Origin: Pseudomonadota bacterium
GTDB taxonomy: Bacteria > Pseudomonadota > Gammaproteobacteria > Burkholderiales > JABEVD01
Direction of reading: 5' to 3'
DNA length: 64,000 nt
Assembly (NCBI GenBank): GCA_021802545.1
Contig: JAJZRS010000001.1
Span: 30,822 to 94,821 of the forward strand
The translations under genes were made by a program, and so were the position numbers. The notes under the pieces are model-generated. The model had not been told where the DNA came from. It saw only the letters and a program-made list of their open reading frames with translations, and made no database searches. Positions 20,050 through 35,596 of this stretch are shown piece by piece (positions within the stretch are counted from its first letter, which is position 1; the number at the start of each line of letters is the position of its first letter).

Positions 20050-20060
20050 TCCACATCCAT

Positions 20061-20471: not shown

Positions 20472-20770
20472 AATTCCACGGCTTCGCCGATCACTTGCTC
20501 GCGAATATGCCGATTGAGTTCGTGCTCAGGTACCAGCTCCACTTTCCGGTGAAGCAGATTTTCGAGACCTGCGGCAAGTGGCATGCGCTGAGCGAAAAGA
20601 TCGTAACCGCGTGGGAGATCAACCAGAATATCCACGTCGCTGTCCGCGCGCTCCTCTCCGCGCGCAACGGAACCGAACACGCGGATGTGCTTCGCACCGT
20701 ACTGGCGCGCCAAGGCTTCGATCTGATTTCTGTTTCGCCTCAACTCATCAAGCAGCATTCCTGTCCCCAT
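20468..20770 (-). CDS. mntA: MNT-type minimal nucleotidyltransferase antitoxin (MntA)
   Basis: GSVARGEERADSDVDILVD NTase signature. Met at 20770 has AAGGTGG upstream. The ORF is open to a TTG at 20794, and another Met lies at 20758. Confidence 0.8.
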   Translation of the reverse strand: MGTGMLLDELRRNRNQIEALARQYGAKHIRVFGSVARGEERADSDVDILVDLPRGYDLFAQRMPLAAGLENLLHRKVELVPEHELNRHIREQVIGEAVEL

Positions 20771-20852
20771 GCTCAGCTGACCACCTTGATGCAATTATAC
20801 TTCTCGTCTGCATTGCGCTGTTGGATTTTTCTTTAATCGTATCATGGTGGAA

Positions 20853-20969
20853 TCAGAATCCGAGCATGCAGCTGGCATTCAACGCGACGAAAACCTGCAG
20901 CACCTTGATCCTGCTCTCGGGTGACTCAGCCCCCGAATAGTCGATGCCGATATAGCGGTCGAATTTCAT
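20853..20969 (-). pseudogene. 38-codon remnant of a gene with an MKFDRYIGIDYSGAE N-terminus
   Basis: Hand translation gives MKFDRYIGIDYSGAESPESRIKVLQVFVALNASCMLGF*. The IGIDYSGA opening is familiar to me as the N-terminus of much longer hypothetical proteins, and here it stops after 38 codons. Confidence 0.3.
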
Positions 20970-21117
20970 CAATCCTTCTTCGCAGTGCATGAAAGCGATA
21001 TTTCAAGCCTGGAGCCGATACAAGTCAACATTTCATGAAGGATCTCGTGCATCACAGATAATCACAGTTGCGGCGCTCAGGCGGCAGGGGTAGGATTCTG
21101 AAAAAAAGAAGAAAAAC

Positions 21118-22026
21118 ATGGGGGAAGACGAACAGATCCGCGCAGCAGCCTTCGAGCATGTCCGGCGTCTTGGCGAAACCATAACGTCCAACGACATCAG
21201 GGCAGGGTTCATGTTCAATGGCGTGCGGATACCGCTGGTCAATCCTCAGCGCGGAATTTTCAAGCCGCGACAGATGCAGCATCTGCTCTCCATCCGGACA
21301 GTTTTCCCCAAGCCCGGTGCAAGGGTTTGGTACGACGATCAGAAGCAAGTCCATCGGCAGATTTTTGAAGGGGAAGAGAGCGTCGATTACGCCTTCATGG
21401 GCGACAATCCCGATGCAGCTGAAAACCGCTGGCTGCGAGAGGCAATGGAAATGCGGAAGCCCTTGATCTATTTTCTCGGTGTTTCCCCAGGGAATTACCA
21501 GGCAATCATGCCGACCTATGTGGCGGGATGGGATGCAATGTCTCTGAAGGCCCAGGTGACATTTGGGTTGCCTAACGAGACCAAACTCGAAATTCCGGCG
21601 AGCGCATTGGAGAGAAGATATGCGCTGCGGGAAATCAAGCAAAGACTCCACCAGGCGTCATTCAGGGAAGCCGTCATCTCGGCATACAATGGACGCTGCG
21701 CTTTATCGGGTTTTCCTGAACCACTGCTTCTTGATGCAGCGCATATCATTTCAGACAAGGACGAAAATTTTGGCCAGCCGGTGGTCCCAAACGGCTTGCC
21801 GCTTTCCAAGATACATCACGCGGCTTTCGATTCCCATTTGATTGGCATTGACCCGGATTTCAAGATACATGTCTCGAAGCGGCTGCTGGATCTGAACGAT
21901 GGCCCGATGCTTGAAGCATTGAAGCAGCTTCACCATCGTTCTATCCACCTTCCCGGACGAATGAAGGATTATCCGGATCGGTCACGCCTCGAAAGACGAT
22001 TTCAGGAATTCAGACAAGGGATGTGA
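21118..22026 (+). CDS. HNH endonuclease (HNH_2 / COG3440-like predicted restriction enzyme) with an unassigned ~190-aa N-terminal domain
   Basis: C-terminal block: YNGRCALSGFPEPLLLDAAHIISDKDENFGQPVVPNGLPLSKIHHAAFDSHLIGIDPD (Cys...AAHI...NG..L....H..FD). The N-terminal domain (GVRIPLVNPQRGIFKP...) is not identifiable by eye. Confidence 0.7.
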   Translation: MGEDEQIRAAAFEHVRRLGETITSNDIRAGFMFNGVRIPLVNPQRGIFKPRQMQHLLSIRTVFPKPGARVWYDDQKQVHRQIFEGEESVDYAFMGDNPDAAENRWLREAMEMRKPLIYFLGVSPGNYQAIMPTYVAGWDAMSLKAQVTFGLPNETKLEIPASALERRYALREIKQRLHQASFREAVISAYNGRCALSGFPEPLLLDAAHIISDKDENFGQPVVPNGLPLSKIHHAAFDSHLIGIDPDFKIHVSKRLLDLNDGPMLEALKQLHHRSIHLPGRMKDYPDRSRLERRFQEFRQGM

Positions 22027-22216
22027 AAGAACATGAATTGCCATAACGTCGGGCAGCAAGTTGCCAGTAACCTGCCGATCAATCTGGGATAGCCTTGAAC
22101 GGTATCCACCAAGCTACTATTGCTACTCGTTTTAACAATCCATCCATGTTAGAGAGTATATCAAGGTAAGTTTAGGGAAATTCGAACCACGAAAGTGCTC
22201 GGGTTTTTCAATTCGT

Positions 22217-22234
22217 GTAACCCTGGCGTAACCC
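22217..22234 (+). repeat. Direct repeat GTAACCC-N4-GTAACCC near the right end of island A
   Basis: GTAACCCTGGCGTAACCC, 47 nt from the 45-bp att repeat. It is the partner of the repeat at 18322-18341. Confidence 0.45.
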
Positions 22235-22280
22235 AGTTAGAAACTGAAAAGGCGATTTGTTGTACAACTAATTGATTTAT

Positions 22281-22325
22281 TGGTGCCGGCAATAGGAATC
22301 GAACCCACGACCTTCTGATTACAAA
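22281..22325 (-). repeat. Perfect 45-bp direct repeat of the tRNA-Thr 3' end (att site between the two islands)
   Basis: TGGTGCCGGCAATAGGAATCGAACCCACGACCTTCTGATTACAAA is identical to 29772-29816. Sequence diverges immediately after, so this is not a second tRNA gene. Confidence 0.9.
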
Positions 22326-22400
22326 CCCTTTGGGGCCTAAAAAATATATGTTTTAAATCAATAGGTAATTTCTTAACTTATTGAAACATAATAATGGTAA

Positions 22401-22440
22401 GTCCTCTTGTGTCCTGTTGTGTCCTCTTATGCCCTATTGG
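22401..22440 (+). repeat. Four tandem 10-bp units phased at one helical turn
   Basis: GTCCTCTTGT GTCCTGTTGT GTCCTCTTAT GCCCTATTGG, lying in the AT-rich arm just inside the left end of island B. Confidence 0.6.
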
Positions 22441-22442
22441 TT

Positions 22443-22463
22443 TGTAGCCTATGTGTAGCCTAG
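22443..22463 (+). repeat. 21-bp motif TGTAGCCTA-N2-TGTAGCCTAG (left copy)
   Basis: TGTAGCCTATGTGTAGCCTAG. A 19/21 identical copy in the same orientation sits at 29697-29717, inside the other end of island B. Confidence 0.65.
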
Positions 22464-22677
22464 AAAATTGGGGACATCGAACCTAGAACACCCCGAAAGC
22501 ATAAAGCTATTCAATTTTGCCACGACAATTGTCTTATTGGCCGATCATCGGCCTTTGCTAACTGAGAAATGGTATGCCTTTTGGGGGCAGGTCAGACCCG
22601 CCATTCAGCGTTTGTTGGCCCTGAACAGCCACGTCGTCATCTGAAGAAATCGGAAAATGGTGGTCTGTCCCGGGTCC

Positions 22678-24099
22678 TTACATAAACATCCGATAGTCGT
22701 AGACATCGTTTACGATGTCGGGTGATTGCTTCACCACTTCAGCAAAGACCTGCGAATACACGAGCGTTACTGGCAGCGTCTTGTATAGTGTGTTGTTGTT
22801 CCAGTCGACCTTTGTGAGGGCAAGAGTGCTCGCGCATGTCGCATGCCATCCCCCAACACCTGAGAAACGGCGCAGCATTATCGGTTTGGGTAGAGGTTTC
22901 AGCGGTGCTTCCTTGAAAACCGGCTGATTGGGTTTCTCCTGATTGATACCATGAACGGCTCCTTGCGTCCAAAGCAGGCACTCGTTTTCTGTAAGTGGCT
23001 GGTAAAGGCCGCGATCAACAGGATATCCTGCAGGAGCCGAGTTCTTGTTCCATTTGTTCGGTCCGTCAATTTTCAACCCATACCAATTGGTTCCGCGGAC
23101 GATCTGAACAAGCTCTATCTCCATCTTCGATCCGAAGGCATCGAACGCGCCTTGGATTTCATCCTCGGTGAAGCCTGTTGTCTTATGGACATAGATCTTT
23201 TTCGGCAAGCGCCCGTTGTGTGAGTTTTGATAAAGCAACAGGCTTTTCGATAACACTGACTGCATCTCTTGATACGTCAGGTATGGATTGCCTTTACGAT
23301 CTGTCGTGTACTCGCGCGTGTCGTAGGCAACAAACTCGAAGCCGGTACCATCGGGATCAAAGACCTGGCTGCAACAAGTACTGTATTCGGCACCATTCTC
23401 AAGCTTCTTGATGGCGTAGCTTAGTCCGATATAAGCCTCATCCTTGTCCCAGTCAGCGAGCTTCCAGGGAATTCCATTTGCCTTTGCATAGAGGGCAACG
23501 CTCAATCCCCATGCGACCTGCGCACGACACGTGCGTTCGAACATAGTGTCGTTGATGATCTGGATTGGAATGTTGAGCGGTGCGACCTTCGCTTTGATCC
23601 TGTCGTGAAGATTGAAGCCTTCGTATAAATAGGCCGCCTTCCATGCAGCAGGCAGATGAACGATCAATACGTCAAACGAATGTGTGAGCTTCTGCAATGG
23701 AAGGATCGCCTGCAAGATCATGTCAGCTAGACCATTGCCATCCCTAGCAGCGGCCATGGTATTGCACTCATTCGGTGTGGGGACGCGCAGATTTTCCGTC
23801 GGCGGTACAAGCTGGGCCCGGAAGACCTTCTCAAACCCCTCATATGCAATGTAGTAGTTTGGAGCTTCACGTACCTGCAGTTTGTTCATCAATTCGCCGG
23901 CAAGCGCATCGAGCCTCGGAAGGAGATTGCTTGGCGGGTATGCAAGTCGGACCACTTTTGGCGCACCGATGTCGAGGCTATATGGGCCATAATCCACCAG
24001 ACCGCGTAACGGATGAGCGTGGGTCTTTCCACCCGCGAAGAGCAGATGCGGTTCCGGCAGAATGGAATTGGCAGGTAGCGCGTTTGGATCGTTAGACAT
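22678..24099 (-). CDS. Short prokaryotic Argonaute (MID-PIWI only, predicted catalytically inactive)
   Basis: 473 aa. MID/PIWI blocks: [54 protein letters not shown], and C-terminal YDYRMFM. The position of the first slicer Asp reads IGLSY. 8-nt overlap with the upstream SIR2-APAZ gene. Confidence 0.85.
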
Positions 24100-25873
24100 T
24101 TTTTCCGCTCCTCCTGCTGAACGCGGAGCGCATGCTGATTTGGAATTCCGCGGGATGTTCGGTGCCTTTGTACGCGATGATGTTCGCGTCCCCTTTCCCG
24201 ATGCCTCCGAGAAAAATCTCGATCCAAGCGCTCAGAATTTGGGAAGCTTGCTTGTTATATCGGCGTATTTTCTTATTGTAGAGAAAGTCGGTGGCTTCTT
24301 CGCGCATCTTGTATGGAGAAATCCAAACATCAGGTTGCAGCAGCAACCACAACTGTCCGTTCCGCTCCTCAACCTTCAGCGAAACGGCCTCTGCCCAATA
24401 GACATCTTTGAGGCCAGGAACCTGGCCGTTAACAACGCCGGGATGAAATTTGCCATTCACATCTTTCCAGGAAAGCGCGTCTCGCAAAGGTTTCAAAGCA
24501 TCGCTGTTGGCCTCCACATGGTAGGTGATGGCGTACCACGTCTTGCCCTGCTTACGCAGCAGGAGAGGTTTGTCAGCTACCAAGGCGGTCGCAACGGTTT
24601 GCTCCACCGTTGACTTCAAGTAAGTCGAAGCGTCGATTACACGAACAAGATCGTCGATCTCGAATGTCGAAATCGACTTAACCCGGTTCGGCTCGTAAAT
24701 CTTGGCAAGTTCCTTGCCGTCTCCCCAGAACAGGATGCGATCCGTGTAACAAACCGAGCAAGGAGGTTGCTTCTCGAACAAGACGTCTTTCAACTGTCTA
24801 ATGTCCAAAGTTCCGTCATAATCGATTGTGCCGCAGGTACTAGGAAAACCTGTGATTCGGAGCGCGTTCGTGCGAAGAATGGGATACGCAGTGCCAACAG
24901 GAGGTAGTGGAATCTTCATTTGCTCAACCGTCGCGCTCCTAACTTTTCCGTCTACGTCCGGATTCTTCTCGGCGACCAATCGCCAGATTTTCGCCAGCAT
25001 CTCATCGAAGGTACCGGTTTCGACGATCCCACCTTTAACGCCCTTACTGTGTGCATAGTCCATCAGCTCACGTACAGGCTTTTCGACGCGAGAAATCCGC
25101 GTAACGGTCCAATACAAACCGTGTGGAAAAGAGTTGTTCTGTTCGATGGCCTCACGGAACATCGCCATCACGTTGCCGTCGCGCCCGCTGTATCCGCTGA
25201 CGACCATCCCGAAGCGAGTAGCGGATGCCACAAGACATTTCTGAATTTCACGATCATTATGGAGCAGATCCTCTGTGAGATTCTTCACGGCCTGATACCG
25301 AAAGTCGCCGTGAACCTTCGCGTAAAACGGAAACCTCTCGGCGTTCAATGCCTCAAGCGCGGCGTAGGAACCTTCAAGATGGAAGGTCGTTAGATTCTTA
25401 CCTGTGATTGAGGCGTAAGCAGATTCAACAACCTCGTCGAAATTGGTTGTGAAGATGATCCGTGCAAGACCGAGGTGGAGGAGTGCAGCTAGCGCGCGGT
25501 GCCCGATCGTTGAGGAAATCTTATCTGTCGAAAGCGCTTTATTGAGATACTTCTGCTGTGCTGCATAGTCTTTCCCGAACAGCAACTCGAAATAGAAGGA
25601 ATATTCGGCCGGATCCCCAAGGGGCGGAAAGCTTCTGCTGTCCATGTACGTCTGTATGCGGGCTTGGACAGATCGATTGCTGACGTCATGTGCAACAACA
25701 TCTTGATTTTCCTGGGTACAGTAGTAACGAAGCTTAAGATCCCAAGTTAGGTCTGTTGCAGTCGGAAGGCCCGAACTGCGTGACGCTCCAGCTCCGAGAA
25801 ACCACATTAGTTGCTTCCCTGTTTGGGCGACAAGCTGGCGGAAGTCGATTTCCTTGATCTCTGGCATCGGCAT
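24092..25873 (-). CDS. SIR2-APAZ protein (NADase effector partner of short pAgo)
   Basis: N-terminal SIR2-type motifs: [38 protein letters not shown]-terminal ~300 aa of APAZ-like size follows. The ATG at 25873 has AAGAGGTG 9 nt upstream. The ORF is open to a GTG at 25885. Confidence 0.8.
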
Positions 25874-25994
25874 TGTGAGCTGCACCTCTTATAACTGCCC
25901 AATTAAATATAAACCCACAGGCTCCACAAAACCTACCAGTTATTCCGGTGTCGATAGGTTCGCTTATGGTCAGTAGCGATCATTCTAGCCCGTT

Positions 25995-26061
25995 GGCATC
26001 AGGCCGCAAAGGCCGATGCCCAGGCCTCGCCCGAGGCCGAAGAAGTTGTGTACTGTTACAC
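25995..26061. other. Cluster of GC-rich stem-loops in the divergent intergenic region (candidate structured RNA or protein-binding element)
   Basis: Hairpin 1: GGCATC-a-GGCC-gcaaa-GGCC-GATGCC (25995-26020). Hairpin 2: GGCCTCG-cc-CGAGGCC (26023-26038). Hairpin 3 is weaker: GTGTA-ctgt-TACAC (26048-26061). The surrounding island DNA is AT-rich. Confidence 0.4.
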
Positions 26062-26113
26062 GACCGCATTGGTGTACATTCCAGGCATTTAGGTTGTAAA
26101 GTACGTTTTGATT

Positions 26114-26142
26114 TTGGAACGATTCAGCCCAAATGTTAATAA
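26114..26142 (+). promoter_or_regulatory. Sigma70-like promoter candidate for the RT-nitrilase gene
   Basis: TTGGAA-N17-TAATAA, ending 35 nt upstream of the ATG at 26177. This is a pattern match only. Confidence 0.3.
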
Positions 26143-26176
26143 GCGGCAAGATAATTGTACAAATATCCAAGGATTG

Positions 26177-29100
26177 ATGATGGGTTATCAGGAAAACTTC
26201 TCCGGCTGGAATCAGATAACACTAGAAGATTTGGTGGTGGCTTACCGCAAAGCTAAGGCGGACTGTTTTTTTGAAAACACCTTTCCTACTGCCATCAAGT
26301 TTGCCGAATACGAACAAGATCTGCTTTATAATTTAAAAAAACTATTGTCTAGCTTGCATACTGAACAAGGGTTTTCCGATAATGATAAATATTTAGGTGA
26401 CATCCGCTTGTTGCCTAAGAAGCTGTCAATCAAAGCAAAGCCAGATGCAGTCAATGGGCACGTTCACTTTTCGAATCCTGCGCGATCCTTTGAGCATCTG
26501 ACCCACCAGAATGACCTGATTCCGGAATTTCGTGTTATCGGTGATTTTCCTGTAGAAACTCATATTCTCTCGGCTTTGTGGATCAATACGGTTGGGCACA
26601 AATTCGATGAACGTCTTGAAGACAGTTGCTATGGAGCGCGCCTCAAGCGGGTTCGTAATGATGAACTGCTTGGCAAAGACGCACCCAAACCATTCCATAT
26701 CAGTGCGATTGGCTCATTTGCCCCGTATTTTCAGCCATACCAGAAATGGCGCAATGATGGTTTGAATGCAATTCGAAGTGAGCTGGAGAAAGGGCACGAT
26801 GTCATTGCTGTGTCACTGGATTTGAAAAGCTATTACCACTTGATTGATCCGATGGCGCTTGCCTCAGATGGGCTACGTGAAGCGCTTGGACTTGAGCTGA
26901 CCGCCCAGGAGAAGTCTTTTACCCTGGAACTGGCTAATTTTCTTTGCCGCTGGTCGAGTCGAGCCAGCGAGTTTGCCGGAAAAACAATCATGGGTAGGAA
27001 GTCTATTCCTGGTGGTCTGGTCATTGGGCTAACTGCAAGCCGAATCATTTCTAATGCCTTGCTGCACCACTGGGACTGCATGATCAAGGAAAAGATCGGA
27101 CCTATCCACTATGGGCGTTATGTGGACGATATGTTTTTAGTGTTGCGTGATACGGGAGCCATTACGTGTAGCGAAGACTTTATGGTTTTTTTGCAGGAAC
27201 GTATGGGTAAAGAGTGCGTTATTCGTAAAAAAAGCGTCAATTCGAGCGCCGTCAATCAAGATCAACTATGGCAGATACAACAAGGTGAATCGATACAAGG
27301 CAAGAGCCAAATTAAGCTACAAGGGGATAAACAAAAACTCTTTGTGTTACAGGGACGAGCGGGGTTGGACTTACTCGACAGTATAGAGCGAGAGATTGCT
27401 GCGCTTTCCAGTGAGCACCGGTTAATGCCTTCACCGGACCAACTGGAGGACTCTACTGCGGCCAAAGTGCTTTCGGCAGCCGGAAGCGTGGGCGAAAATG
27501 CCGATAACTTGCGCCGTGCTGATGGTCTCACTATTCGCCGCTTGAGTTGGGCTTTGCAGTTGCGCCATGTAGAGACACTGGCCCGTGATTTACCGCCCCA
27601 TGAGTGGAAAAGTCAGCGTGAAGAATTTTACCAGTTTGCCCATAACCATATTCTCAGACCTGACACGCTATTTGCTCATTTCACATATTTACCTCGCTTG
27701 CTAGGTTTCGCCATCAGCATGAATGAGTGGAGGCAGGCTGAGCAGATTGTTGTAGCCACTTATGAGTCTCTTGCCATGCTGGAAGCTGAAGTCCGGCCAC
27801 GAGCAAATATCGCCATAAATGGTGTTGAATCCAAATCAGGCGAGGATATTTGGCGTTATATAAAAGGGACGTTGACTTGGTTGTTTATCGATGCTGCAAC
27901 ACGCTATTACGATCCGGACAAGTTACTTACTGATCGGCACGGGCGTAAAGAGCTACGGCTTGCGGAGTTATTTTTAAATGGTATATGGGGTGAGCTGGTT
28001 GATTTCGAGAACCTTCTTAATTTCCGATTCGGGTCAGAAGAGTTTTACCAAAAGGCTCCACTTGTAGCTATGGCCGATCTGGCCAAAGAGCCGTACAAGC
28101 GTATTTTGAAACGCAAAGCAGCAAGCGCATTGTTGAGTCAAGATAATAGGAGGCAAGAGAGTCGAATTCTCAAACTATTGGAATCGACAGAACTCCTCCA
28201 TACAGAAGATCTCAAGCGTTTTTTGCAGTCGACTCGTGTCAGTCGACTTGCAGCTGTTGCAGTGGGACATCGTAGTGGGGAAAGTTATTTGCCTTATCTG
28301 TTTCCAACGCGCCCACTTAGCGCTGCGGAAATTTCTGAATTGGCGCCAGAATGCGTAGGGCTGCCACAAATGGATGGTAAGGCTTGTGAAGATATGCCTG
28401 CTGTAATATGGGCCAAATACACTCAGGCGATACGTGGCGTTTGGGTGAAGCCGACCTTGTTGGCAGCAGATCAAGAAGAGGACGTGAAAGGAAAGAAAAA
28501 GAGAGCGAGCGCAACAAAGTTGCTGAGCATTGGTACAGACAAGAAGCGCAGGATAATTGTCGCTCTGTCCAACCTTAAAACTGAGGATGACGATTGGGCT
28601 GCCTCGGCTTGTGATAAGTCGAACCTTTCCAAGGATCGATATAGCCGTATATCAGACTTGGTAAACCAGACCTTGCGCTTAAATCCGAAACCAGATTACA
28701 TGCTGTTGCCTGAATTGTCTTTGCCGTTGCAATGGGTGGACAGTATTGCCTCTCGATTGACCGTTGCTGGTATCAGCCTAATAGCCGGTACGGAATATCG
28801 ACATTTCGGTAGAGATGAAATACTCAGCGAGGCATGCCTGGTACTAACGGATAATAGGCTGGGTTTTCCTGCAGCTATCAAGATATGGCAACCGAAACTT
28901 CAGCCGGGGGTGCGTGAAGATCAGCGACTGACTGATACATTTGGTAAGCGTTGGGCGTTCTCTGAGCTGACGGGTAAGAAAATCAAGCCAGTGTACGTTC
29001 ATAATGGGACTCATTTTGGCGTTATGGTTTGCTCCGAATTGCAGAACAGTAAAGCGCGAATCAAGTTCCAGGGTAAAGTGGATGCATTGATGGTGCTAAG

Positions 29101-29419
29101 CTGGAATCAGGATTTGGATACCTTTGCTGCGCTTATCGAATCGACTGCTTTGGATCTCCATGCATACACCATACTGGTAAATAATCGCGCATACGGAGAT
29201 AGCCGAGTAAGGTCTCCCGCAAAAGAAGTTTTTATGCGCGACTTGGCTCGTGTGCGTGGAGGGAATAATGATTTTGTAATAGCAGCCACGTTGGATATTG
29301 ATACATTGCGTGCCTTCCAAAGCCGTGCAAAGCGCTGGCCGCAAGAGGGAGATAAGTTTAAGCCGCTGCCGGAGGATTTTAGTTTGGCGGATGGGCGACA
29401 GAAGCTACCACCGAAATGA
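26177..29419 (+). CDS. Reverse transcriptase fused to a C-terminal nitrilase (C-N hydrolase)-like domain; DRT type 1-like (UG/Abi class RT)
   Basis: The start is taken at MMGYQ (AAGGA just upstream); the ORF is open from 26108. RT motifs: VIAVSLDLKSYYHLID (A), GGLVIGLTASRIISNALL (B), HYGRYVDDMFLVL (C, YVDD). A long helical middle region follows. The C-terminal ~300 aa has a Glu/Lys/Cys context typical of nitrilase-fold enzymes (YMLLPELSLP ... FGVMVCSELQN). Confidence 0.8.
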   Translation: MMGYQENFSGWNQITLEDLVVAYRKAKADCFFENTFPTAIKFAEYEQDLLYNLKKLLSSLHTEQGFSDNDKYLGDIRLLPKKLSIKAKPDAVNGHVHFSNPARSFEHLTHQNDLIPEFRVIGDFPVETHILSALWINTVGHKFDERLEDSCYGARLKRVRNDELLGKDAPKPFHISAIGSFAPYFQPYQKWRNDGLNAIRSELEKGHDVIAVSLDLKSYYHLIDPMALASDGLREALGLELTAQEKSFTLELANFLCRWSSRASEFAGKTIMGRKSIPGGLVIGLTASRIISNALLHHWDCMIKEKIGPIHYGRYVDDMFLVLRDTGAITCSEDFMVFLQERMGKECVIRKKSVNSSAVNQDQLWQIQQGESIQGKSQIKLQGDKQKLFVLQGRAGLDLLDSIEREIAALSSEHRLMPSPDQLEDSTAAKVLSAAGSVGENADNLRRADGLTIRRLSWALQLRHVETLARDLPPHEWKSQREEFYQFAHNHILRPDTLFAHFTYLPRLLGFAISMNEWRQAEQIVVATYESLAMLEAEVRPRANIAINGVESKSGEDIWRYIKGTLTWLFIDAATRYYDPDKLLTDRHGRKELRLAELFLNGIWGELVDFENLLNFRFGSEEFYQKAPLVAMADLAKEPYKRILKRKAASALLSQDNRRQESRILKLLESTELLHTEDLKRFLQSTRVSRLAAVAVGHRSGESYLPYLFPTRPLSAAEISELAPECVGLPQMDGKACEDMPAVIWAKYTQAIRGVWVKPTLLAADQEEDVKGKKKRASATKLLSIGTDKKRRIIVALSNLKTEDDDWAASACDKSNLSKDRYSRISDLVNQTLRLNPKPDYMLLPELSLPLQWVDSIASRLTVAGISLIAGTEYRHFGRDEILSEACLVLTDNRLGFPAAIKIWQPKLQPGVREDQRLTDTFGKRWAFSELTGKKIKPVYVHNGTHFGVMVCSELQNSKARIKFQGKVDALMVLSWNQDLDTFAALIESTALDLHAYTILVNNRAYGDSRVRSPAKEVFMRDLARVRGGNNDFVIAATLDIDTLRAFQSRAKRWPQEGDKFKPLPEDFSLADGRQKLPPK

Positions 29420-29696
29420 GATCGCCTAAATATCCATCACATTCTCAGCAACACGACGAACCTAGTTTAGAGGATGTCGAGGGCGTCCGGAAATTTACGT
29501 AAAACGGCCCTTGTCGCCTGAGTTCCGATGGTTCGTAAAGACCGAAGCCCGGTCATCGGCCGAAGCGGTCGATCTGAACATCCTGATAAGGCGACTGCCA
29601 GCACAAATGTTCGCCCCCCTTTTTTGTGAGGCTTGAGTGAAAAAGCGGCGAAGAGGCAATCCGAGCTACTGACTGATGTGAACTCACTTAGAAAAT

Positions 29697-29717
29697 GTAG
29701 CCTAGTTGTAGCCTAGG
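29697..29717 (+). repeat. 21-bp motif TGTAGCCTA-N2-TGTAGCCTAG (right copy)
   Basis: TGTAGCCTAGTTGTAGCCTAG, 55 nt from the tRNA 3' end. It is the partner of 22443-22463. Confidence 0.65.
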
Positions 29718-29771
29718 CGCATTTTGGGCGGGGTCAATGGCCTACAAATTTATCATAAGCCATTGTTTTTG

Positions 29772-29847
29772 TGGTGCCGGCAATAGGAATCGAACCCACG
29801 ACCTTCTGATTACAAATCAGCTGCTCTACCAACTGAGCTATGCCGGC
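29772..29847 (-). tRNA. tRNA-Thr (anticodon UGU), with encoded CCA
   Basis: The reverse complement folds by hand as GCCGGCA-TA-GCTC-AGTTGGTA-GAGC-A-GCTGA-TTTGTAA-TCAGA-AGGTC-GTGGG-TTCGATT-CCTAT-TGCCGGC-ACCA. It is 76 nt with the anticodon loop TT-TGT-AA. Confidence 0.9.
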
Positions 29848-29888: not shown

Positions 29889-30269
29889 TCACTTGACGAT
29901 GTGGAGCTTCGGCTTTGTCGGGGCGGGGGGCGGCGGCTCTTGTTCTGGGCCGCTGGAGCCTTCGACCTGGAAGAACAATCCTTCACCGTTCTCCTTGGAA
30001 AAGATCCCCGCCACCCTGGAGACGGGGATCCATATGTCCCTGGGCACGCCGCCGAAGCGCGCGGTGAACTGGATCGAATCGTTGCCGAGCACCAAGCCGC
30101 GCGTCGCCGCAACCCCGATGTTGAGGACGATCTCGCCTTCCTTGACGAACTCCATCGGCACCTTCGTGTTGTCGTCAATCTTCACCGAAAGATAGGGTGT
30201 CATGCCGGAATCGGAGCACCATTCGTAGATTGCCCTGATGAGGTATGGCTTGGTGGAGGCCGTGCTCAC
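29889..30269 (-). CDS. sspB: Stringent starvation protein B (ClpXP adaptor)
   Basis: KPYLIRAIYEWCSDSGMTPYLSV block, a Pro-rich linker and the LHIVK tail. 4-nt overlap with sspA. Confidence 0.9.
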   Translation of the reverse strand: MSTASTKPYLIRAIYEWCSDSGMTPYLSVKIDDNTKVPMEFVKEGEIVLNIGVAATRGLVLGNDSIQFTARFGGVPRDIWIPVSRVAGIFSKENGEGLFFQVEGSSGPEQEPPPPAPTKPKLHIVK

Positions 30270-30865
30270 TTGCGCATGACCTTCTCGGAGGCGGTCAGCG
30301 CGGCGATGAAGGCGGGTCTGCTGAAAATGCGCTCGGCGTATTTCAGAATCGGCGCCGCCTGCTTGCCGAGCTGGATGCCGTAATAGTCTAGGCGCCAGAG
30401 CAGCGGAGCGAGCGCGACGTCGAGCATCGAGAATTCGTCGCCCAGTATGTATTTCTGCTTGGCGAATACGGGGGCGATCTGGGTCAGGCTGTCGCGTATG
30501 GCGATTCTCGCCTTTTCGGCGGACTTCTGGCTGCCGCGCTCGATTTCCTCGACATGGACGAAGAGCTCCTTTTCGAACCTGAAAAGGAAGAGCCTTGCCC
30601 TCGCGCGCATGATCGGGTCCGCGGGCATCAGCTGGGGATGGGGAAAGCGGTCGTCGATGTATTCGTTGATGATGTTAGATTCGTACAGGACCAGGTCGCG
30701 CTCGACGAGGACGGGAACCTGATTGTAGGGGTTCATGACAGCCAGATCCTCTGGCTTGTTGTAGAGGTCGACGTCTATGATCTGGAAATCCATATCCTTT
30801 TCGTACAGCACGATGCGGCATCGTTGGCTGAAAGGGCAGGACGTGCCCGAATACAAAGTCATCAT
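30266..30865 (-). CDS. sspA: Stringent starvation protein A (GST-like)
   Basis: MTLYSGTSCPFSQRCRIVLYEKDMDF...NPYNQVPVLVERDLVLYESNIINEYIDDRFPHPQLMP. Confidence 0.9.
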   Translation of the reverse strand: MMTLYSGTSCPFSQRCRIVLYEKDMDFQIIDVDLYNKPEDLAVMNPYNQVPVLVERDLVLYESNIINEYIDDRFPHPQLMPADPIMRARARLFLFRFEKELFVHVEEIERGSQKSAEKARIAIRDSLTQIAPVFAKQKYILGDEFSMLDVALAPLLWRLDYYGIQLGKQAAPILKYAERIFSRPAFIAALTASEKVMRK

Positions 30866-30957
30866 GGCCGTAATTTCCTGAAAATGGGTATTTTAACCCA
30901 TTTCTGCCACAAATACGAAATACTGTGAGATAACTCTATGTATATTAATGTGAAATG

Positions 30958-31704
30958 TCAGATCGGGTTGTTCGTGTCGATATGCGTGTGAATCAGCCCG
31001 AAGGTTTTCGCCAAATGCTCGCCGAGCGCCCGGATTCCGTATCGCTCTGTCGCATAATGCCCTGCGCAGATGTAGGCGATGCCGGATTCATTTGCTTCGT
31101 GAACGGTCTGCTCCGATATTTCCCCTGAAAGGTAGGCATCCGCACCCAGTCTGGCCGCTTCCAGAAGATAGCCTTGGGCGGCTCCGCTGCACCAGGCGAT
31201 TTTTTTCACCTGCCTGGATATATTCCCGACGACGAACGCATCCCTGCCGAGTCGGTTGCCTATCCTGTCTGCGAGTTCAAGCGCAGTAACGGCATCAATT
31301 GTATTGCCGAGCATGCCTATCCCCTGATCAGCGAATCTGGAGGCGACCGAAAAGCCGAGCCTTTGGGCAAGCATGGCATTGTTGCCGAGCTCGGGATGGG
31401 CGTCGAGCGGCAGGTGATAGGCGAAAAGACTCATGCCGCTTTTCAGGAGAAGTTCGATGCGATTTTTCTTGATGCCGGCGATCCTGGGGTCTTCGTTCTT
31501 CCAGAAATAGCCGTGATGGACGAAAACCGCGTCAGCCCCTGCTTCACTGGCCTTCTCGAGGAAAGCGAGGGAAGCGGTGACGCCGGTCGCGATTTTTCCG
31601 ATCTCGATCTTTCCTTCGACCTGGAGGCCGTTCGGGCAATAATCCCTGAACCGGTCGATCTCGAGCAAACGTCCGGTATAATCTTCCAATTCGTTTCGAA
31701 GCAT
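30958..31704 (-). CDS. Nif3-like dinuclear metal centre protein (YbgI family)
   Basis: PNGLQVEG...ADAVFVHHGYFW...AYHLPLDAHPELGNN...CAGHYATERYG. Confidence 0.85.
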   Translation of the reverse strand: MLRNELEDYTGRLLEIDRFRDYCPNGLQVEGKIEIGKIATGVTASLAFLEKASEAGADAVFVHHGYFWKNEDPRIAGIKKNRIELLLKSGMSLFAYHLPLDAHPELGNNAMLAQRLGFSVASRFADQGIGMLGNTIDAVTALELADRIGNRLGRDAFVVGNISRQVKKIAWCSGAAQGYLLEAARLGADAYLSGEISEQTVHEANESGIAYICAGHYATERYGIRALGEHLAKTFGLIHTHIDTNNPI

Positions 31705-31718
31705 AAGGATCCTCGGCC

Positions 31719-32861
31719 ATGCGCAGACTTTGGCTTATTTTTGCACAAACGGCGACCATAAGTCTTGCCATTCTGTTCGTCGTCTCGACCCTGAAATCCA
31801 ATCTGCTTCCTTTCGGCAGACATGGCTCCATCGCGACGATCAGGGAGGCGGTCGAGGTCAAGGGCGGCAAGATGAGCGGTTTTTCAAATGCGGCCGCCAA
31901 GGCCATGCCTTCGGTGGTCAACATCTTCACGAGCCATGAAGTCAGGGTGCCGAGAAATCCGCTCATGGACGACCCATTCTTCAGGCGCTTCTTCGGCGAG
32001 CCGGGGCGGTCCGAGACGAGGCGAAGCTTCAGCCTGGGTTCGGGCGTGATCGTGAGCCCCGAGGGATTCATCCTGACCAACAGGCATGTCATCGAGGCCG
32101 CTGACGAAATCGAGGTCGCGCTCTCGGACGGCAGGAAGTCGCTCGCCAAGGTGGTCGGGTCCGATCCCGAGACGGATCTGGCCGTGCTGAAGGTCGATTT
32201 CAAGAACCTGACCCCGATCACATTCGGGCAATCGGAAAGCATCAAGGTGGGGGATATCGTGCTGGCCATTGGGAACCCCTTCGGCGTCGGGGAAACGGTC
32301 ACCATGGGCATCGTCAGCGCATTGGGCAGGAACCACCTGGGCATCAATACCTACGAGAATTTCATCCAGACGGATGCGCCCATCAATCCCGGCAATTCAG
32401 GCGGCGCGCTCGTCGATTCGGGCGGCAATCTCGTCGGCATCAATACCGCGATCTATTCGCAAAGCGGAGGCTCCCTCGGCATCGGATTCGCCATTCCGGT
32501 GAGCCTCGCCAAGAACGTGATGGAGCAGATCATGGAGAAGGGTTCCGTGACGCGCGGCTGGATCGGCGTCGAAGTGCAGGACATCAGTCCCGAGCTTGCG
32601 GATTCATTCAGGCTTTCCGACACTAGGGGGGCGCTGATCGCCGGCGTGTTCAGGGGAGGGCCGGCCTATTCCGCGGGGATGCGCCCCGGAGACATCCTGA
32701 TCCAGCTTGAGGGCAGCCGTGTTGATGACGCCTCATCCATGCTGAACGACATCGCCGAGCTCGAGCCGGGCAAGGTTGCGCGCATGACGATCCTGAGGGG
32801 CGGGAAAAAGATGGAGCTCAAGGTCACGGTGGGCAAGCGCCCGAACATCCGGAGGCATTGA
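31719..32861 (+). CDS. Periplasmic trypsin-like serine protease with one PDZ domain (DegS/AlgW type)
   Basis: N-terminal TM anchor. Triad contexts are TNRHVIE, ETDLAVLKV and GNSGGALVD. There is a single C-terminal PDZ-like segment. Confidence 0.85.
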   Translation: MRRLWLIFAQTATISLAILFVVSTLKSNLLPFGRHGSIATIREAVEVKGGKMSGFSNAAAKAMPSVVNIFTSHEVRVPRNPLMDDPFFRRFFGEPGRSETRRSFSLGSGVIVSPEGFILTNRHVIEAADEIEVALSDGRKSLAKVVGSDPETDLAVLKVDFKNLTPITFGQSESIKVGDIVLAIGNPFGVGETVTMGIVSALGRNHLGINTYENFIQTDAPINPGNSGGALVDSGGNLVGINTAIYSQSGGSLGIGFAIPVSLAKNVMEQIMEKGSVTRGWIGVEVQDISPELADSFRLSDTRGALIAGVFRGGPAYSAGMRPGDILIQLEGSRVDDASSMLNDIAELEPGKVARMTILRGGKKMELKVTVGKRPNIRRH

Positions 32862-33616
32862 TGCTGGTCGACACCCATTGCCATCTCGATGCGGCCGAGT
32901 TCGACCCGGACAGGGCTCAGGTCATCGAGCGCGCGAGAATGGCGGGGGTGGGAGCATTCGTCGTCCCGGGAGTGGAGCGAAAATCCTTCGGCAATGTGCT
33001 CGAATTGTGCGCAGCTGAACTCGCCTGCCATCCCGCGCTCGGCATTCATCCCCTTTATGTCGAGGAGGCTTCCTTCGAAGATCTGGATTATTTGCGCGAA
33101 AAGGCGCTGGAAGTCGTCGCGATCGGCGAGATCGGGCTGGATTTCTTCGTCGAGCATTACGACAGGAATCTCCAGGTCGACTATTTCGAGGCGCAGCTCA
33201 AGATTGCGCGCGAATTCGATCTTCCCGTCCTCCTCCACGTGCGCCGCTCGCAGGACGCCATCCTTGCAAGCTTGAGGAAAGCAAAGGTCAAGGGCGGGAT
33301 CGCGCATGCCTTCAACGGCAGCCTGCAGCAGGCGGAGGAATTCATCAAGCTGGGCTTCAAGCTCGGTTTCGGCGGGGCGATGACCTACGAGCGGGCGACG
33401 AAAATACGCCATCTTGCCGAGATTCTTCCCCTGGAATCGATCGTCCTCGAGACGGATTCCCCCGACATGCCGCCATCCTTCATCGGAAAAAACAGGAATT
33501 CTCCTGAATATTTGCCGAAAATAGCAGAAGTTCTTGCAAATTTGAGGAAAATTACTGTAGATGAAGTGGCGATCGCAACGACTGAAAACGCAAGAGAAGT
33601 GCTGGAGCTGGAATGA
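32858..33616 (+). CDS. TatD-family metal-dependent hydrolase
   Basis: LVDTHCHLD...GEIGLDF...LHVR...GIAHAFNGS...ETDSPD. 4-nt overlaps on both sides. Confidence 0.85.
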   Translation: MMLVDTHCHLDAAEFDPDRAQVIERARMAGVGAFVVPGVERKSFGNVLELCAAELACHPALGIHPLYVEEASFEDLDYLREKALEVVAIGEIGLDFFVEHYDRNLQVDYFEAQLKIAREFDLPVLLHVRRSQDAILASLRKAKVKGGIAHAFNGSLQQAEEFIKLGFKLGFGGAMTYERATKIRHLAEILPLESIVLETDSPDMPPSFIGKNRNSPEYLPKIAEVLANLRKITVDEVAIATTENAREVLELE

Positions 33617-34329
33617 GCAGATTCGAAAGGACGCGCATCCTCATCGGGGATGAAGGTATAGCCAAACTGGCATCGAAACATGTTTTCCTTGCAGGTCTTG
33701 GCGGGGTGGGCTCCTATTGCGCCGAAGCGCTGGCGCGCGGCGGCATAGGCCGGCTCACTCTGCTCGACCACGACGTGGTGGCTGAGAGCAACATCAACAG
33801 GCAGTTGCCGGCCCTGGATTCGACAGTGGGGCAATCCAAGGCTGAATTGATGGCGTCGAGGATCCACGAGATCAATCCCGACTGCGTCGTCGCGATCAGG
33901 CGGGAATTCCTGAATGTCGAGAACGTCAACGACATCGTCCCCGTGGATGCGGATTACGTGATCGATGCGATCGATTCGCTCAACTGCAAGGTCGCGCTGG
34001 TTGCCGAGAGCGTGAAAAGAGGGCTGAAAGTCGCGTCCAGCATGGGCGCAGGAAACAAGCTCGATCCATCGAGGATCAGGCTCGCCGACATTTCGGAGAC
34101 GAGGATCTGCCCGCTTGCAAGCCAGATGAGGAAAAGATTGCGTAAGCGTGGCATCGAGCAGGGCGTGCTGACGGTTTACACGGACGAGCAGCCCAGGCCG
34201 CCGCTTCCCCCCGAGCCTGTCTCCGGGCACGGGCGCCCCAGGGCGGTCAACGGCACGATCAGCTACATGCCGCCGCTTTTCGGCTTCATGCTCGCAGGCG
34301 CCGTGATCAAGTCGCTCCTGGAAGCGTGA
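33613..34329 (+). CDS. tcdA: tRNA threonylcarbamoyladenosine dehydratase (ThiF-family, TcdA/CsdL-like)
   Basis: [39 protein letters not shown]...YVIDAIDS closely parallels E. coli TcdA as I remember it. Confidence 0.75.
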
Positions 34330-35596
34330 AGAGCGCGATCGACTCGACGTGGGAAGTGTGCGGGAACATGTTGATCACGCCCGCGCAGGCCAAATCATAG
34401 CCTTTCGAATGGACGAGTATCCCGGCATCCCTGGCGAGGGTTGCAGGGTCGCACGAGACGTAGACGATGCGCTTCGGATAAGGTTCCTTCAGCGCCTGGA
34501 CAAGCTCGTGCGCGCCCGCCCTGGGCGGGTCGATCAGCAGCTTGTCGTATCCTGAAAGATCGACTCCTTTTTTCTCGAACAGGTCGGCCACCTCGAAGCG
34601 CGCATTCGAGATGCCGTTCTTTCCCGCATTCTGCTTCGCGCGTTCGACGAGAACGGCGCTGCCTTCCATCCCCGTAACAAGCGCTCCCGACCTTGCGATA
34701 GGCAGCGTGAAATTCCCCAGCCCGCAGAAGAGATCGGCTATCTCTTCGCCTTTTCTCGGCGCGAGAAGATCGATGGCGCGCCTCACCATGACCCGGTTGA
34801 CCGAGAAATTCACCTGCGTGAAGTCCGAAGGCAGGAAGGGCATGGTGATGCCGAATTCCAGAAGGGAATAATGCAGGTTCGCGGATTCGGGCGGATGGAA
34901 AGGGTGGATCGAATCGACCCCCTTGGGCTGGAGGTAGATCGCCACGCCATGCCGATCTGCGAATTCCCTGATGATTTTCTCGTCCGATTCGGTGAGCGGA
35001 TCGAGGATCCTGAAAACGAGGAGATCGCAATCCTCTCCTGCCACGACCTCTATCTGGGGGAGGCGTCTTTTCACGGAAAGCCGCTCGATCATTTCCTTGA
35101 GATGCGGAATCAGTCCGGATATTTTTTCCGGGAGAACTGCGCAGCTTTCCATGTCGGTGACGTAGCGGGTGCGCTTTTCGTTGAATCCGACCAGGACTTT
35201 TTCCTTCTTCTCGACGTATTTCACCGAAAGCCTGGCCCTGCGCCGGTATTCCCAGTAGGGGCCATGGATGGGCGGCAGGATGCGATCCGCCCTCACCCTG
35301 CCCACATGCCAGAGCGCATCTTCCAGGATGCGCTGCTTCGCGGCGACCTGGGCCGATGGCTCGAGATGCTGCATGCTGCACCCGCCGCAGAGGCCGAAAT
35401 TGGGGCATTTCGGTTCGGTTCGCCAGGGACTGCTGACCTGTATCCTGGTCACGTTGGCAAATTCGACCTTCGGTTTCTTCTTGAAAACCGAATAGTCCAC
35501 CTGCTCTCCCGGAAGGGCGCCTTCGACGAAGACAGCCTTGCCTTCCACATGAGCGACCCCTCTGCCCTCGTGGTCGAGGGATTCGATTCTTGTCAT
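34307..35596 (-). CDS. rlmD: 23S rRNA (uracil-C5)-methyltransferase RlmD/RumA
   Basis: N-terminal TRAM-like region ([21 protein letters not shown]), Cys cluster ([15 protein letters not shown]) and SAM-MTase motifs ([18 protein letters not shown]). Confidence 0.85.

Follow-up and report, generated by a model that had tools for sequence, protein, structure and literature searches.

The window, meaning the whole 64,000-nt stretch of DNA analysed, carries a gene for a reverse transcriptase (RT) fused to a nitrilase-like domain, which is an ordinary further member of an already described and tested family, UG5-large (DRT11). By analogy with published relatives, its product would very probably be a self-sufficient, single-gene anti-phage system needing neither the adjacent Argonaute operon nor a membrane partner. 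That this RT-nitrilase lies beside an Argonaute system appears to be an accident of the small mobile island carrying both, and no sign of the two working together. Features of the locus are listed in Table 1.

Table 1. Features of the island and of its ends (columns: feature; position in the window; strand; basis or comment).
Left island boundary, exact 44-nt copy of the tRNA-Thr 3′ half	22282..22325	.	0 mismatches; 0 expected by chance
Tandem TGTAGCCTA pair, inside the left island end	22443..22463	+	motif count
Short pAgo (MID-PIWI), SPARSA (473 aa)	22678..24099	-	PADLOC pAgo_I 609 bits; PDB 8IN8_C 755 bits
SIR2-APAZ gene, SPARSA (593 aa)	24092..25873	-	PADLOC Aga_SIR2-PNTD1-PNTD2 652 bits; Pfam SIR2_2; PDB 8IN8_B 665 bits
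Divergent spacer, 303 nt	25874..26176	.	composite junction
Relic 3′ end of type I R-M hsdS	26114..26177	+	reads FWNDSAQMLISGKIIVQISKD then stop; stop codon overlaps the RT ATG
RT-nitrilase gene, UG5-large / DRT11 family	26177..29419	+	ORF; PADLOC; DRT11 alignment
RT (palm/fingers) domain	26177..27352	+	aa ~1-392; motif A D215 = nt 26819; YVDD aa 315-318 = nt 27119-27130
Alpha-helical middle region	27353..28489	+	aa ~393-771; AF2 model
C-N hydrolase (nitrilase-superfamily) domain	28520..29356	+	aa ~782-1060
Tandem TGTAGCCTA pair, inside the right island end	29696..29716	+	motif count
tRNA-Thr(TGT)	29772..29847	-	ARAGORN; Rfam 71 bits; 3′ half 29773-29816 = right boundary repeat

The open reading frame extends on the plus strand from 26108 (TTG) or 26177 (ATG) to 29419. 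Translation yields 1080 aa when started at ATG 26177 and 1079 aa from ATG 26180. The second ATG has an AAGGA ribosome-binding site 6 nt upstream and is the position at which the relatives and an identical database protein (P0001, 1079 aa) begin; it appears the likelier start of the two. A sequence-only reading of this DNA had described a plus-strand gene of about 1,080 aa with RT motifs A, B and C, and all the motifs that it quoted are found in the translation: SLDLKSYYHLID (motif A, aa 213-224, nt 26813-26848), GLVIGLTASRIISN (motif B, aa 280-293) and YGRYVDDMFLV (motif C, aa 312-322), together with LLPELS (aa 843-848) and VMVCSEL (aa 949-955) on the nitrilase side. Residues D215, Y315, D317 and D318 of the RT domain are invariant in both sets of relatives (67 and 94 sequences). 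The predicted nitrilase catalytic residues E846 (nt 28712), K907 (nt 28895), E914 (nt 28916) and C952 (nt 29030) are likewise 100% conserved in the two sets. The protein was modelled by AF2 with a pLDDT of 86.6 and a pTM of 0.88 using a 94-sequence input that included distant relatives, while an input of 26 close relatives gave a pLDDT of 58.8 and left the C-terminus unmodelled. The long helical region said to follow the RT is seen in the model as helices at aa 393-771. Foldseek matched the RT domain to the RTs of DGRs, group II introns and DRT9, and the C-terminal domain, with probability 1.00, to nitrilase-superfamily amidases and nitrilases (target-normalised TM-score 0.57-0.67). The proposal of a C-terminal C-N hydrolase fold with a Glu-Lys-Cys arrangement, here the invariant E846/K907/C952, was thus confirmed.

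Family assignment relied on PADLOC, since Pfam and NCBIfam were uninformative. The PADLOC model RT_UG5-nitrilase (PDLC03780) covers aa 2-1079 of the protein with 1010.7 bits (E=1.9e-304), a score near the 1015.7 bits that the validated Sinorhizobium DRT11 (S. meliloti) obtains on the same model; RTasNitrilase gives 124 bits and the next non-UG5 model, Drt1a, 79 bits. The Pfam scan returned no family at E<=0.1, and NCBIfam only weak retron and Drt3a matches, all under the cut-off. The check with RT and CN_hydrolase profiles that had been suggested was therefore positive through PADLOC but empty through Pfam, where a search with RVT_1 and CN_hydrolase alone would return nothing. By profile score the protein is a UG5-large (DRT11) enzyme of class 3 of the UG/Abi RTs. 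The earlier labels, DRT type 1 and class 1 UG-Abi, have to be replaced. Identity with DRT1 (UG1) was rejected on the Drt1a score (79 bits versus 1010 for UG5), on length (1080 aa versus an expected 1200-1300) and on the match to PDB 9YFD, which comprises short stretches only. Class 1 membership was rejected because the classification of Mestre et al. puts both UG1 and UG5 in class 3, whose members carry (phospho)hydrolase domains (PMC9226505; PMC13275509).

The mechanism of RT-nitrilase systems had been called poorly understood, a statement that is now outdated: a cryo-EM structure and a mechanism are available for DRT1, and the validation of UG5-large, as DRT11, dates from 2026. Class 3 DRT1, “DRT5S” and “DRT5L” carry out template-free synthesis of protein-linked DNA (PMC13275509; “DRT5L” is read here as UG5-large, the main text of that paper being without the term “UG5”). 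DRT11 requires only its RT and nitrilase, shows no ncRNA and confers MOI-dependent protection, which is abolished by mutation of DD296-297 or C876 (PMC13436386). Anti-phage protection needing both active sites, with an abortive phenotype, is known just for DRT11 and DRT1, and control by filaments and a C-terminal lid was demonstrated for DRT1 alone (PMC13275509). In its mode of DNA synthesis, its control by oligomerisation and its abortive infection the window protein most likely resembles these relatives. With the protein itself as primer and no RNA as template, its RT domain would make short DNA, and the resulting adduct would drive oligomerisation through the nitrilase domains, so that the enzyme stays inactive yet ready. 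The block would be lifted by a phage replication factor, whereupon the Glu-Lys-Glu-Cys nitrilase would hydrolyse some essential small molecule and the infection would abort. The priming residue can only be guessed at. The segment LSSEHRLMPSPD (aa 410-421, nt 27404-27439) is invariant and adjoins a low-confidence loop (pLDDT <50 at aa 438-445); within it S412, E413 and R415 are invariant in the 94 relatives, and S412 is a conceivable candidate. Comparison of aa 380-518 with the DRT1 priming region produced only spurious dipeptidase matches and no usable alignment, and the serine that primes synthesis in DRT1, S402, has no conserved counterpart elsewhere in class 3 (PMC13275509).

No ORF longer than 54 aa was found between 29420 and the tRNA-Thr gene, nor any downstream membrane-protein ORF in the window. 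A downstream membrane protein was detected by a crude hydropathy test at three of 74 RT loci, and one (clusters 85/1858) is present in 31 of 299 UG5-large members. It is optional and not a defining component, as only this fraction of the members has one and DRT11 is also without it. The E. coli E101 “RT-nitrilase + TM” system (P2/P4 hotspots) reportedly requires its downstream membrane protein (PMC9226505), so that autonomy would not be universal in the UG5-large family.

The two tRNA-Thr repeats are spaced by 7,491 nt and bracket just three genes (pAgo, SIR2-APAZ and RT-nitrilase), in agreement with the earlier description of an island that contains nothing else. Its GC content is 0.47-0.51 versus 0.56-0.59 outside. 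A third tRNA-Thr repeat was not found further left at <=3 mismatches. The motif TGTAGCCTA occurs four times in the window (0.05 expected by chance) and nowhere but at the island ends; its pairs could possibly be arm-type sites of a recombinase. The tRNA-derived repeats and the deviating GC are those of a tRNA-integrated genomic island, whose third mark would be an integrase of its own; none is encoded in the window, the island included. In contig L002 the island stands in tandem with an integrase-bearing element, the integrase adjoining it, while contig L003 holds a circular junction, one metagenome having yielded the island in circular form. Five metagenome contigs from several samples carry the island with 100% identity, and it is apparently still excising. 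CIME-type elements are integrase-less, att-flanked and mobilised in cis or in trans. The island is like them in its direct repeats of a tRNA 3′ half, the lack of its own recombinase, its circular or tandem junctions and its accretion beside an integrase-bearing element; its cargo consists of two defence systems only, and for its excision we infer a helper integrase. We tentatively regard it as an integrase-less defence cassette that a neighbouring integrase might mobilise in trans, a reading that falls somewhat short of an even chance.

Divergently from the RT gene, SIR2-APAZ and then short pAgo are encoded in one operon with an 8-nt gene overlap. Both proteins match the solved SPARSA complex 8IN8 (665 and 755 bits), of which the operon is a full close homologue, so that its identification as SPARSA in the sequence-only reading was correct; it is a system separate from the RT. 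A 20-nt inverted repeat around SPARSA (22546-22565 / 25999-26018) was considered as a cassette boundary and discarded, as homology to L085 stops at the pAgo stop codon.

The spacer between the two systems had been taken for a shared control region of 303 bp. Its length is exactly that, but the notion of shared control did not survive comparison with homologous loci. SPARSA relatives remain homologous as far as 25901-25934, L085 adding 25958-26018, and homology with RT relatives starts at 26133/26134, 43 nt upstream of the ATG. The RT side of the spacer (~60 nt) retains the last ~20 codons of a type I restriction-modification (R-M) hsdS gene, with in-frame likeness to the intact HsdS C-termini found just upstream of the RT relatives L084 (LRDWLLPMLMNGQVTVQTTKE then stop), L038 and L010. 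The spacer, judged by these homology limits, joins two segments that travel independently of each other; it is no conserved control region serving both systems. A GATAAT box (26150-26155) lies, with the ribosome-binding site, in the conserved 43 nt preceding the RT. Within the spacer only one promoter-like match was obtained, at 26139-26111 of the minus strand; the scan gave no plus-strand site there and fewer sites than in shuffled sequence, hence it is uninformative. Searches with Rfam (E<=1, 20-32 kb) identified tRNA only, the RNA folding z-scores of the two spacer strands (-1.7 and -1.2) were not significant, and no conserved non-coding flank is common to the RT relatives.

Could the two systems nevertheless work together? 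Molecular cooperation, in which RT-made DNA or another RT product would feed or trigger the SPARSA sensor and both systems would be co-regulated from the 303-bp region, is suggested by the divergent arrangement of the genes, 303 nt apart and alone together in an island that is identical in the five metagenome contigs. At two independent loci, L047 (SPARDA) and L093 (SPARSA), a UG5 RT also follows directly after a short pAgo system. However, the survey of RT-nitrilase loci, proposed earlier as a search for recurrent pAgo neighbours, did not reveal recurrence, and the homologous loci are not enriched in pAgo, an outcome named beforehand as counting against cooperation. Short pAgo was found at one of 76 RT loci in species-representative genomes, the single case being SPARDA. 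A UG5 RT was present at just one of the 80 SPARSA loci; flanking sequence of 700 nt or more is available upstream for 52 of these and downstream for 58. Among the six RT lineages nearest to the window gene (83-90% identity) none has a pAgo; their neighbours are glycerol genes, Kiwa, Gabija, unknown genes, type I R-M, and R-M fragments with AbiE. A UG5 RT is likewise missing from the four nearest SPARSA loci (L085, L086, L088 and L089; pAgo 87-92% identical). Samples of ~80 loci leave room for a weak RT-pAgo association, but pAgo type and orientation vary among the three loci where the systems adjoin, and the spacer is a patchwork with an hsdS relic. The DNA made by relatives is semi-random and covalently attached to the enzyme, an unlikely source of guides or targets (PMC13275509), and in published tests DRT11 and SPARSA each act alone. 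We consider cooperation very improbable. The same low standing is given to a functional unit of SPARSA and RT-nitrilase travelling on a helper-integrase-dependent 7.5-kb minicircle, joined for instance by a common metabolite pool or by RT-made DNA influencing the pAgo sensor. As to a common pool, SIR2 destroys NAD+, and an amidase of the nitrilase type might have a nucleotide with an amide group as its substrate. Homologues of type I R-M genes are present at 27 of 76 RT loci and at 12 of the 41 SPARSA loci that span 8 kb or more. Both systems probably derive from such neighbourhoods, where each is often found, and their common habit of lodging by these genes leads to occasional adjacency.

Linkage might also be adaptive and not mechanistic, the island being a transfer unit whose two systems cover complementary threats and are selected together without molecular cross-talk. 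The 7,491-bp unit with its att-like repeats, the recovered circle, the tandem with an integrase-bearing element and the identical copies in several samples fit this idea, which overlaps the preferred explanation and departs from it solely in claiming selection for the pairing. It is rather unlikely, given that the pairing is represented by one sequence variant only, with no sign of long-term co-retention, and that the two partners have their nearest relatives at separate loci. A decaying passenger, with the gene intact in sequence yet unexpressed or inactive within the remains of an eroding island, would be compatible with the lack of an integrase in the island, with the spacer devoid of a detected plus-strand sigma-70-like promoter and with the replacement of the native upstream context. 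We hold it to be improbable: the frame is full-length with every conserved catalytic residue present, the sequence is identical in five assemblies of an island apparently still excising, and the 43 conserved nt keep a ribosome-binding site and the GATAAT box. Least credible is an RT that copies a structured ncRNA encoded in the spacer or flank, as in DRT2, DRT9 and retrons, even though the 303 nt upstream are non-coding and hold two GC-rich hairpins (~25995-26040). Those hairpins move with SPARSA (e.g., in L085); Rfam found no match and the fold is not significantly stable; conservation with RT relatives ends 43 nt before the ATG and is that of a coding relic. DRT11 shows no ncRNA and tolerates upstream deletion (PMC13436386), and class 3 enzymes make DNA even with RNase A present (PMC13275509).

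With the autonomous UG5-large system as the preferred reading, the value of the analysis is mostly negative yet useful, as the RT-nitrilase/Argonaute pairing is not worth chasing as a new composite system. It draws attention to the genomic habitat of these genes, UG5-large being very often directly behind type I R-M hsdS genes and SPARSA likewise near type I R-M, and to a two-system defence payload on a 7.5-kb att-flanked integrase-less element captured as a circle in one metagenome. The window protein is in addition a convenient partner-free UG5-large orthologue for biochemical work on the priming residue and the nitrilase substrate.

Among characterized systems, DRT11 of S. meliloti RMO17 (WP_040120558.1; PMC13436386; genome record NZ_CP009145.1) provides the closest functional reference, with a collinear full-length alignment at 31% identity (E=2e-139). 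Window D317/D318 correspond to DRT11 D296/D297, the window YVDD to YVDD 294-297, and K907/C952/E954 to K833/C876/E878. Both genes are without a membrane partner and without evidence of an ncRNA, and both lie in a variable defence region; DRT11 is on a megaplasmid, whereas the window gene is chromosomal, in the tRNA-Thr island, and its protein is 75 aa longer. The protein is 66% identical to E. coli UG5-large plasmid homologues (WP_000222103.1). The E. coli copy examined adjoins AbiE and a non-membrane 156-aa neighbour and may differ from the E101 allele, which reportedly needs a downstream membrane protein for which the window has no counterpart. DRT1 (PDB 9YFD; PMC13275509) has in common the class 3 architecture of RT, helical region and nitrilase. 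In sequence and profile alignments (the Foldseek PDB library, to April 2026, did not yield 9YFD) the window YVDD aligns to DRT1 D324/D325, the motif A region to SLDLK and C952 to C1116; DRT1 is 1229 aa long and the 9YFD match (E=1.5e-4) is confined to the C-terminal ~100 aa. DRT1 is nevertheless the likely model for protein-primed, template-free synthesis and for nitrilase control by oligomerisation in the window protein.

The plus-strand gene facing the SPARSA operon (Table) is, as judged from its sequence, a new member of the known and validated UG5-large/DRT11 family, its own activity being only predicted. A Pfam scan found no family in the protein and NCBIfam gave only sub-threshold reverse transcriptase (RT) matches. 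The PADLOC model RT_UG5-nitrilase aligned over its full length with 1010.7 bits (E=1.9e-304) as compared to 79 bits for Drt1a (UG1), which assigns the gene to UG5-large and rules out the DRT type 1 label of the sequence-only reading. The class 1 label given with it has also to be replaced: UG1 and UG5 both belong to the class 3 UG/Abi RTs, fused to (phospho)hydrolase domains (PMC9226505; PMC13275509). Anti-phage activity of a UG5-large enzyme was validated in 2026 in Sinorhizobium meliloti and the system was named DRT11 (PMC13436386). The DRT11 gene taken from S. meliloti pSymA scores 1015.7 bits with the same PADLOC model and its product aligns collinearly with residues 14-1078 of the window RT (31% identity, E=2e-139). 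The long reading frame can be opened at a TTG or at an ATG, the latter followed directly by a second ATG at 26180. This second ATG is the likelier start because it is used in the relatives and in a 1079-aa database entry with the identical sequence, and because an AAGGA ribosome-binding site lies 6 nt before it. All motifs quoted in the sequence-only reading are found in the translation from 26177, which defines the residue numbering used here.

Features of the RT-nitrilase island and its surroundings
Feature	Position	Strand	Remarks
MNT/HepT nucleotidyltransferase toxin-antitoxin pair	20133-20794		
HNH_2-domain protein	21118-22026		
Short pAgo gene	22678-24099	-	473 aa; PADLOC 609 bits; 8IN8 755 bits
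SIR2-APAZ gene	24092-25873	-	593 aa; PADLOC 652 bits; 8IN8 665 bits
RT-nitrilase ORF	26108 (TTG) or 26177 (ATG) to 29419	+	1080 aa from 26177
Motif SLDLKSYYHLID	aa 213-224 of RT		
Motif GLVIGLTASRIISN	aa 280-293 of RT		
Motif YGRYVDDMFLV	aa 312-322 of RT		
Motif LLPELS	aa 843-848 of RT		
Motif VMVCSEL	aa 949-955 of RT		
tRNA-Thr(TGT)	29772-29847	-	
tRNA-Thr near UG5-large genes (Pseudomonas x3, Jeongeupia)	L025 19020-19095, L027 16791-16867, L034 20628-20704, L045 4510-4603		

Conservation and predicted fold uphold the proposed succession of RT domain, helical region and nitrilase domain. Residues D215, Y315, D317, D318, E846, K907, E914 and C952 are invariant in two separate alignment sets, one of 67 relatives whose full-length sequences were translated from the RT loci (35-87% identity) and the other of 94 database proteins (40-87% identity). 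The spacing of the C-terminal residues (E - 61 residues - K - 7 residues - E - 38 residues - C) is as expected for the Glu-Lys-Glu-Cys site of nitrilase-superfamily enzymes. AlphaFold2 modelling with 26 close relatives gave a pLDDT of 58.8, and with 94 sequences a pLDDT of 86.6 and a pTM of 0.88. In the model, an RT domain is followed by helices spanning residues 393-771 and then by an alpha/beta C-terminal domain in which a strand precedes K907 and C952 is placed at a strand-to-helix turn. Foldseek searches of the PDB matched the C-terminal domain to amidases, nitrilases and carbamoylases of the nitrilase superfamily (probability 1.00; TM-score normalised to the target 0.57-0.67) and the N-terminal part to diversity-generating retroelement (DGR), group II intron and DRT9 RTs. 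Conserved residues and fold matches thus indicate that the nitrilase triad is present.

The divergent neighbour was also correctly recognised: by its matches to PADLOC models and to the solved complex 8IN8 it is a bona fide SPARSA operon, whose two genes overlap by 8 nt and which is separated from the RT gene by exactly 303 nt. The cooperation between RT and Argonaute proposed from this arrangement finds no support in the neighbourhoods of either partner. On the RT side, one genome per species gave 76 distinct UG5-large loci (34-74% identity) which, with three metagenome loci of close relatives, make 79 RT loci, 57 of them with at least 5 kb on both sides. The window pAgo and SIR2-APAZ were used as tblastn queries and an HMM was built from 72 pAgos; these searches identified a pAgo in a single one of the 76 genome loci, so that pAgo is not a recurrent neighbour. 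This locus, L047 of Saezia sanguinis, carries SPARDA (nuclease-APAZ and pAgo) and not SPARSA, in the co-directional order SPARDA, UG5 RT, bSEFIR (6710-15267). None of the six closest RT lineages with readable context (83-90% identity) has a pAgo. Found alongside are glycerol-metabolism genes (90% identity), Kiwa and transposase fragments (89%), Gabija-like genes and an integrase (87%), unknown genes (84%), and, in two lineages at 83%, a complete type I restriction-modification (R-M) operon or R-M fragments with AbiE. For SPARSA, the survey covered 80 metagenome loci whose pAgos are 46-92% identical to that of the window. Sequence of 700 nt or more is available beyond the SIR2-APAZ start in 52 of them and beyond the pAgo stop in 58. 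SIR2-APAZ lies directly upstream of pAgo in 71, the other nine being short or truncated contigs. A UG5 RT was found in one of the 80 (L093), and none beside the four closest complete pAgos (87-92% identity; L085, L086, L088, L089). The L093 RT, 30% identical to that of the window, is directly downstream of SPARSA inside a type I R-M locus with the co-directional order hsdS, hsdR, SPARSA, UG5 RT and a 419-aa unknown gene (1794-13731). L047 and L093 are the only short-pAgo/UG5 adjacencies found besides the window, and the three are unlike in pAgo type, orientation and RT lineage. An adjacency of about 1% is approximately what is expected for two defence-island systems, a judgement and not a computed statistic.

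Co-regulation through a shared control region, the other proposal made for the pair, is not supported by the composition of the spacer, where the homologies of the two sides end separately. At the DNA level, SPARSA relatives match the window from the pAgo stop as far as 25901-25934, and L085, the closest SPARSA relative, shares a further block (25958-26018). The spacer has two GC-rich hairpins side by side at 25995-26040, GGCATCAGGCCGCAAAGGCCGATGCC and CAGGCCTCGCCCGAGGCCG, without a T-run; L085 shares the first of them, upstream of its SIR2-APAZ gene. A 20-nt partial inverted match to this first hairpin is found downstream of pAgo (22546-22565). Homology to RT relatives starts abruptly at 26133/26134, 43 nt before the ATG, in three different contexts. 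The RT-proximal ~60 nt (26114-26177) read in frame as FWNDSAQMLISGKIIVQISKD followed by a stop codon that overlaps the RT start. L084 (7930-7998), L038 and L010 have a complete specificity-subunit C-terminus from a type I R-M system at the same position (LRDWLLPMLMNGQVTVQTTKE, then stop, being one example). The window RT, which still carries this in-frame hsdS stump, thus descends from a copy that was located immediately behind hsdS. Type I R-M genes are found at most 3.5 kb upstream in 23 of 73 RT loci; in UG5-large loci with such upstream genes the hsdS stop often abuts the RT start. Considering only loci of at least 8 kb, type I R-M homologues occur anywhere in the locus in 27/76 RT and 12/41 SPARSA loci, a shared preference that suffices for an occasional meeting of the two systems. 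The sole promoter-like match in the spacer faces SPARSA. Read from its sequence, the spacer is a junction, with nothing pointing to a co-evolved bidirectional promoter.

No ORF longer than 54 aa was identified between the RT stop codon and the tRNA, and the window RT thus lacks a membrane partner. Such a partner is optional in UG5-large (31/299 members; PMC9226505), absent in DRT11 (PMC13436386) and was detected by a crude hydropathy test in 3/74 RT loci. An Rfam search of the 20-32 kb segment returned nothing but the tRNA, and the folding of the 303-nt spacer is not significantly more stable than that of shuffled controls (z=-1.7 and -1.2). Both results fit the literature, in which class 3 enzymes are described as independent of an ncRNA (PMC13275509; PMC13436386).

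The description of an island that contains nothing else is accurate. The 3' 44 nt of tRNA-Thr are repeated exactly at 22282-22325, 7,491 nt away, and the segment bounded by the repeats (22282-29816) holds only the pAgo, SIR2-APAZ and RT genes, at a GC content of 0.47-0.51 versus 0.56-0.59 in the core flanks. A search for an integrase within the island found none. The 9-mer TGTAGCCTA has four copies in the 64-kb window (0.05 expected by chance), arranged as two tandem pairs with 11-nt spacing, one just inside each island end (22443-22463 and 29696-29716), possibly arm-type binding sites for a recombinase or excisionase. The simplest reading is an att-flanked element with putative arm-type sites and without its own integrase. 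An RT identical to that of the window is present on five metagenome contigs (L001-L005). L001 reproduces the window context. In both L004 and L005 the break falls within the right repeat. In L002, which carries the same island, the place of the tRNA 5' half beyond the right repeat is taken by genes for a tyrosine integrase (352 aa) and a DUF4258 protein. L003 measures 7,632 nt and its two ends overlap exactly over 141 nt. The remaining unit of 7,491 nt has the length of the repeat spacing, and across its junction the right island end is followed by a single repeat and then by the left island interior. Judging from its name (k141_...), the contig was assembled with k=141, and a circular contig is expected to have ends that are identical over k nucleotides. 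L003 fits either a circle or a tandem duplication of the island, which would excise or duplicate in tandem through the integrase of a neighbouring element.

To the left, the region at 18-22.3 kb (18000-22270) has an intermediate GC content (0.52-0.54) and probably accreted earlier at the same tRNA-Thr. Besides the HNH_2-domain protein and the MNT/HepT pair (Table), it contains two genes without Pfam family. In Jeongeupia and three Pseudomonas genomes, the UG5-large gene has a tRNA-Thr at a distance of 3.5-7.5 kb that is 82-88% identical to the one of the window. The tRNA-Thr setting suggests a repeated landing site for islands with a UG5-large RT. The core flank at 30000-39400 (L001 8001-17531) encodes SspB, an SspA-like GST, a DsrC-family protein, TatABC and His-pathway genes; DsrC presumably hints at a sulfur-oxidising proteobacterial host. 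The hsdS relic with its type I R-M association and an integrase-less, apparently circularising island with two systems are modest but real side points.

The mechanism of RT-nitrilase systems, described in the sequence-only reading as poorly understood, is no longer obscure after the reports on DRT1 and DRT11 (PMC13275509; PMC13436386). DRT1, DRT5S and DRT5L carry out template-free, protein-primed synthesis of short semi-random DNA (PMC13275509); we take the latter two to be UG5-small and UG5-large, the term "UG5" being absent from the main text of that paper. By homology with these class 3 enzymes, the window RT domain would make the same kind of product. The segment LSSEHRLMPSPD, S412 in particular, is a candidate priming site: it is invariant and lies beside a low-confidence loop of the AlphaFold2 model that recalls the unresolved DRT1 segment holding S402. 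An alignment between the two regions was attempted and none was obtained. Activation of DRT1 requires a phage 5'-3' ssDNA helicase, and its adduct drives tetramer and filament assembly via the nitrilase domains, an assembly that both enables and locks the active site (PMC13275509). By homology, this would also be the most likely mode of action of the window RT. The residues on which immunity depends in the known systems have counterparts in the window RT. D317/D318 align with D296/D297 of DRT11 and K907/C952/E954 with its K833/C876/E878, and protection is lost in the DRT11 DD-to-AA and C876A mutants (PMC13436386). C952 also aligns with C1116 of DRT1, whose mutation abolishes immunity (PMC13275509).
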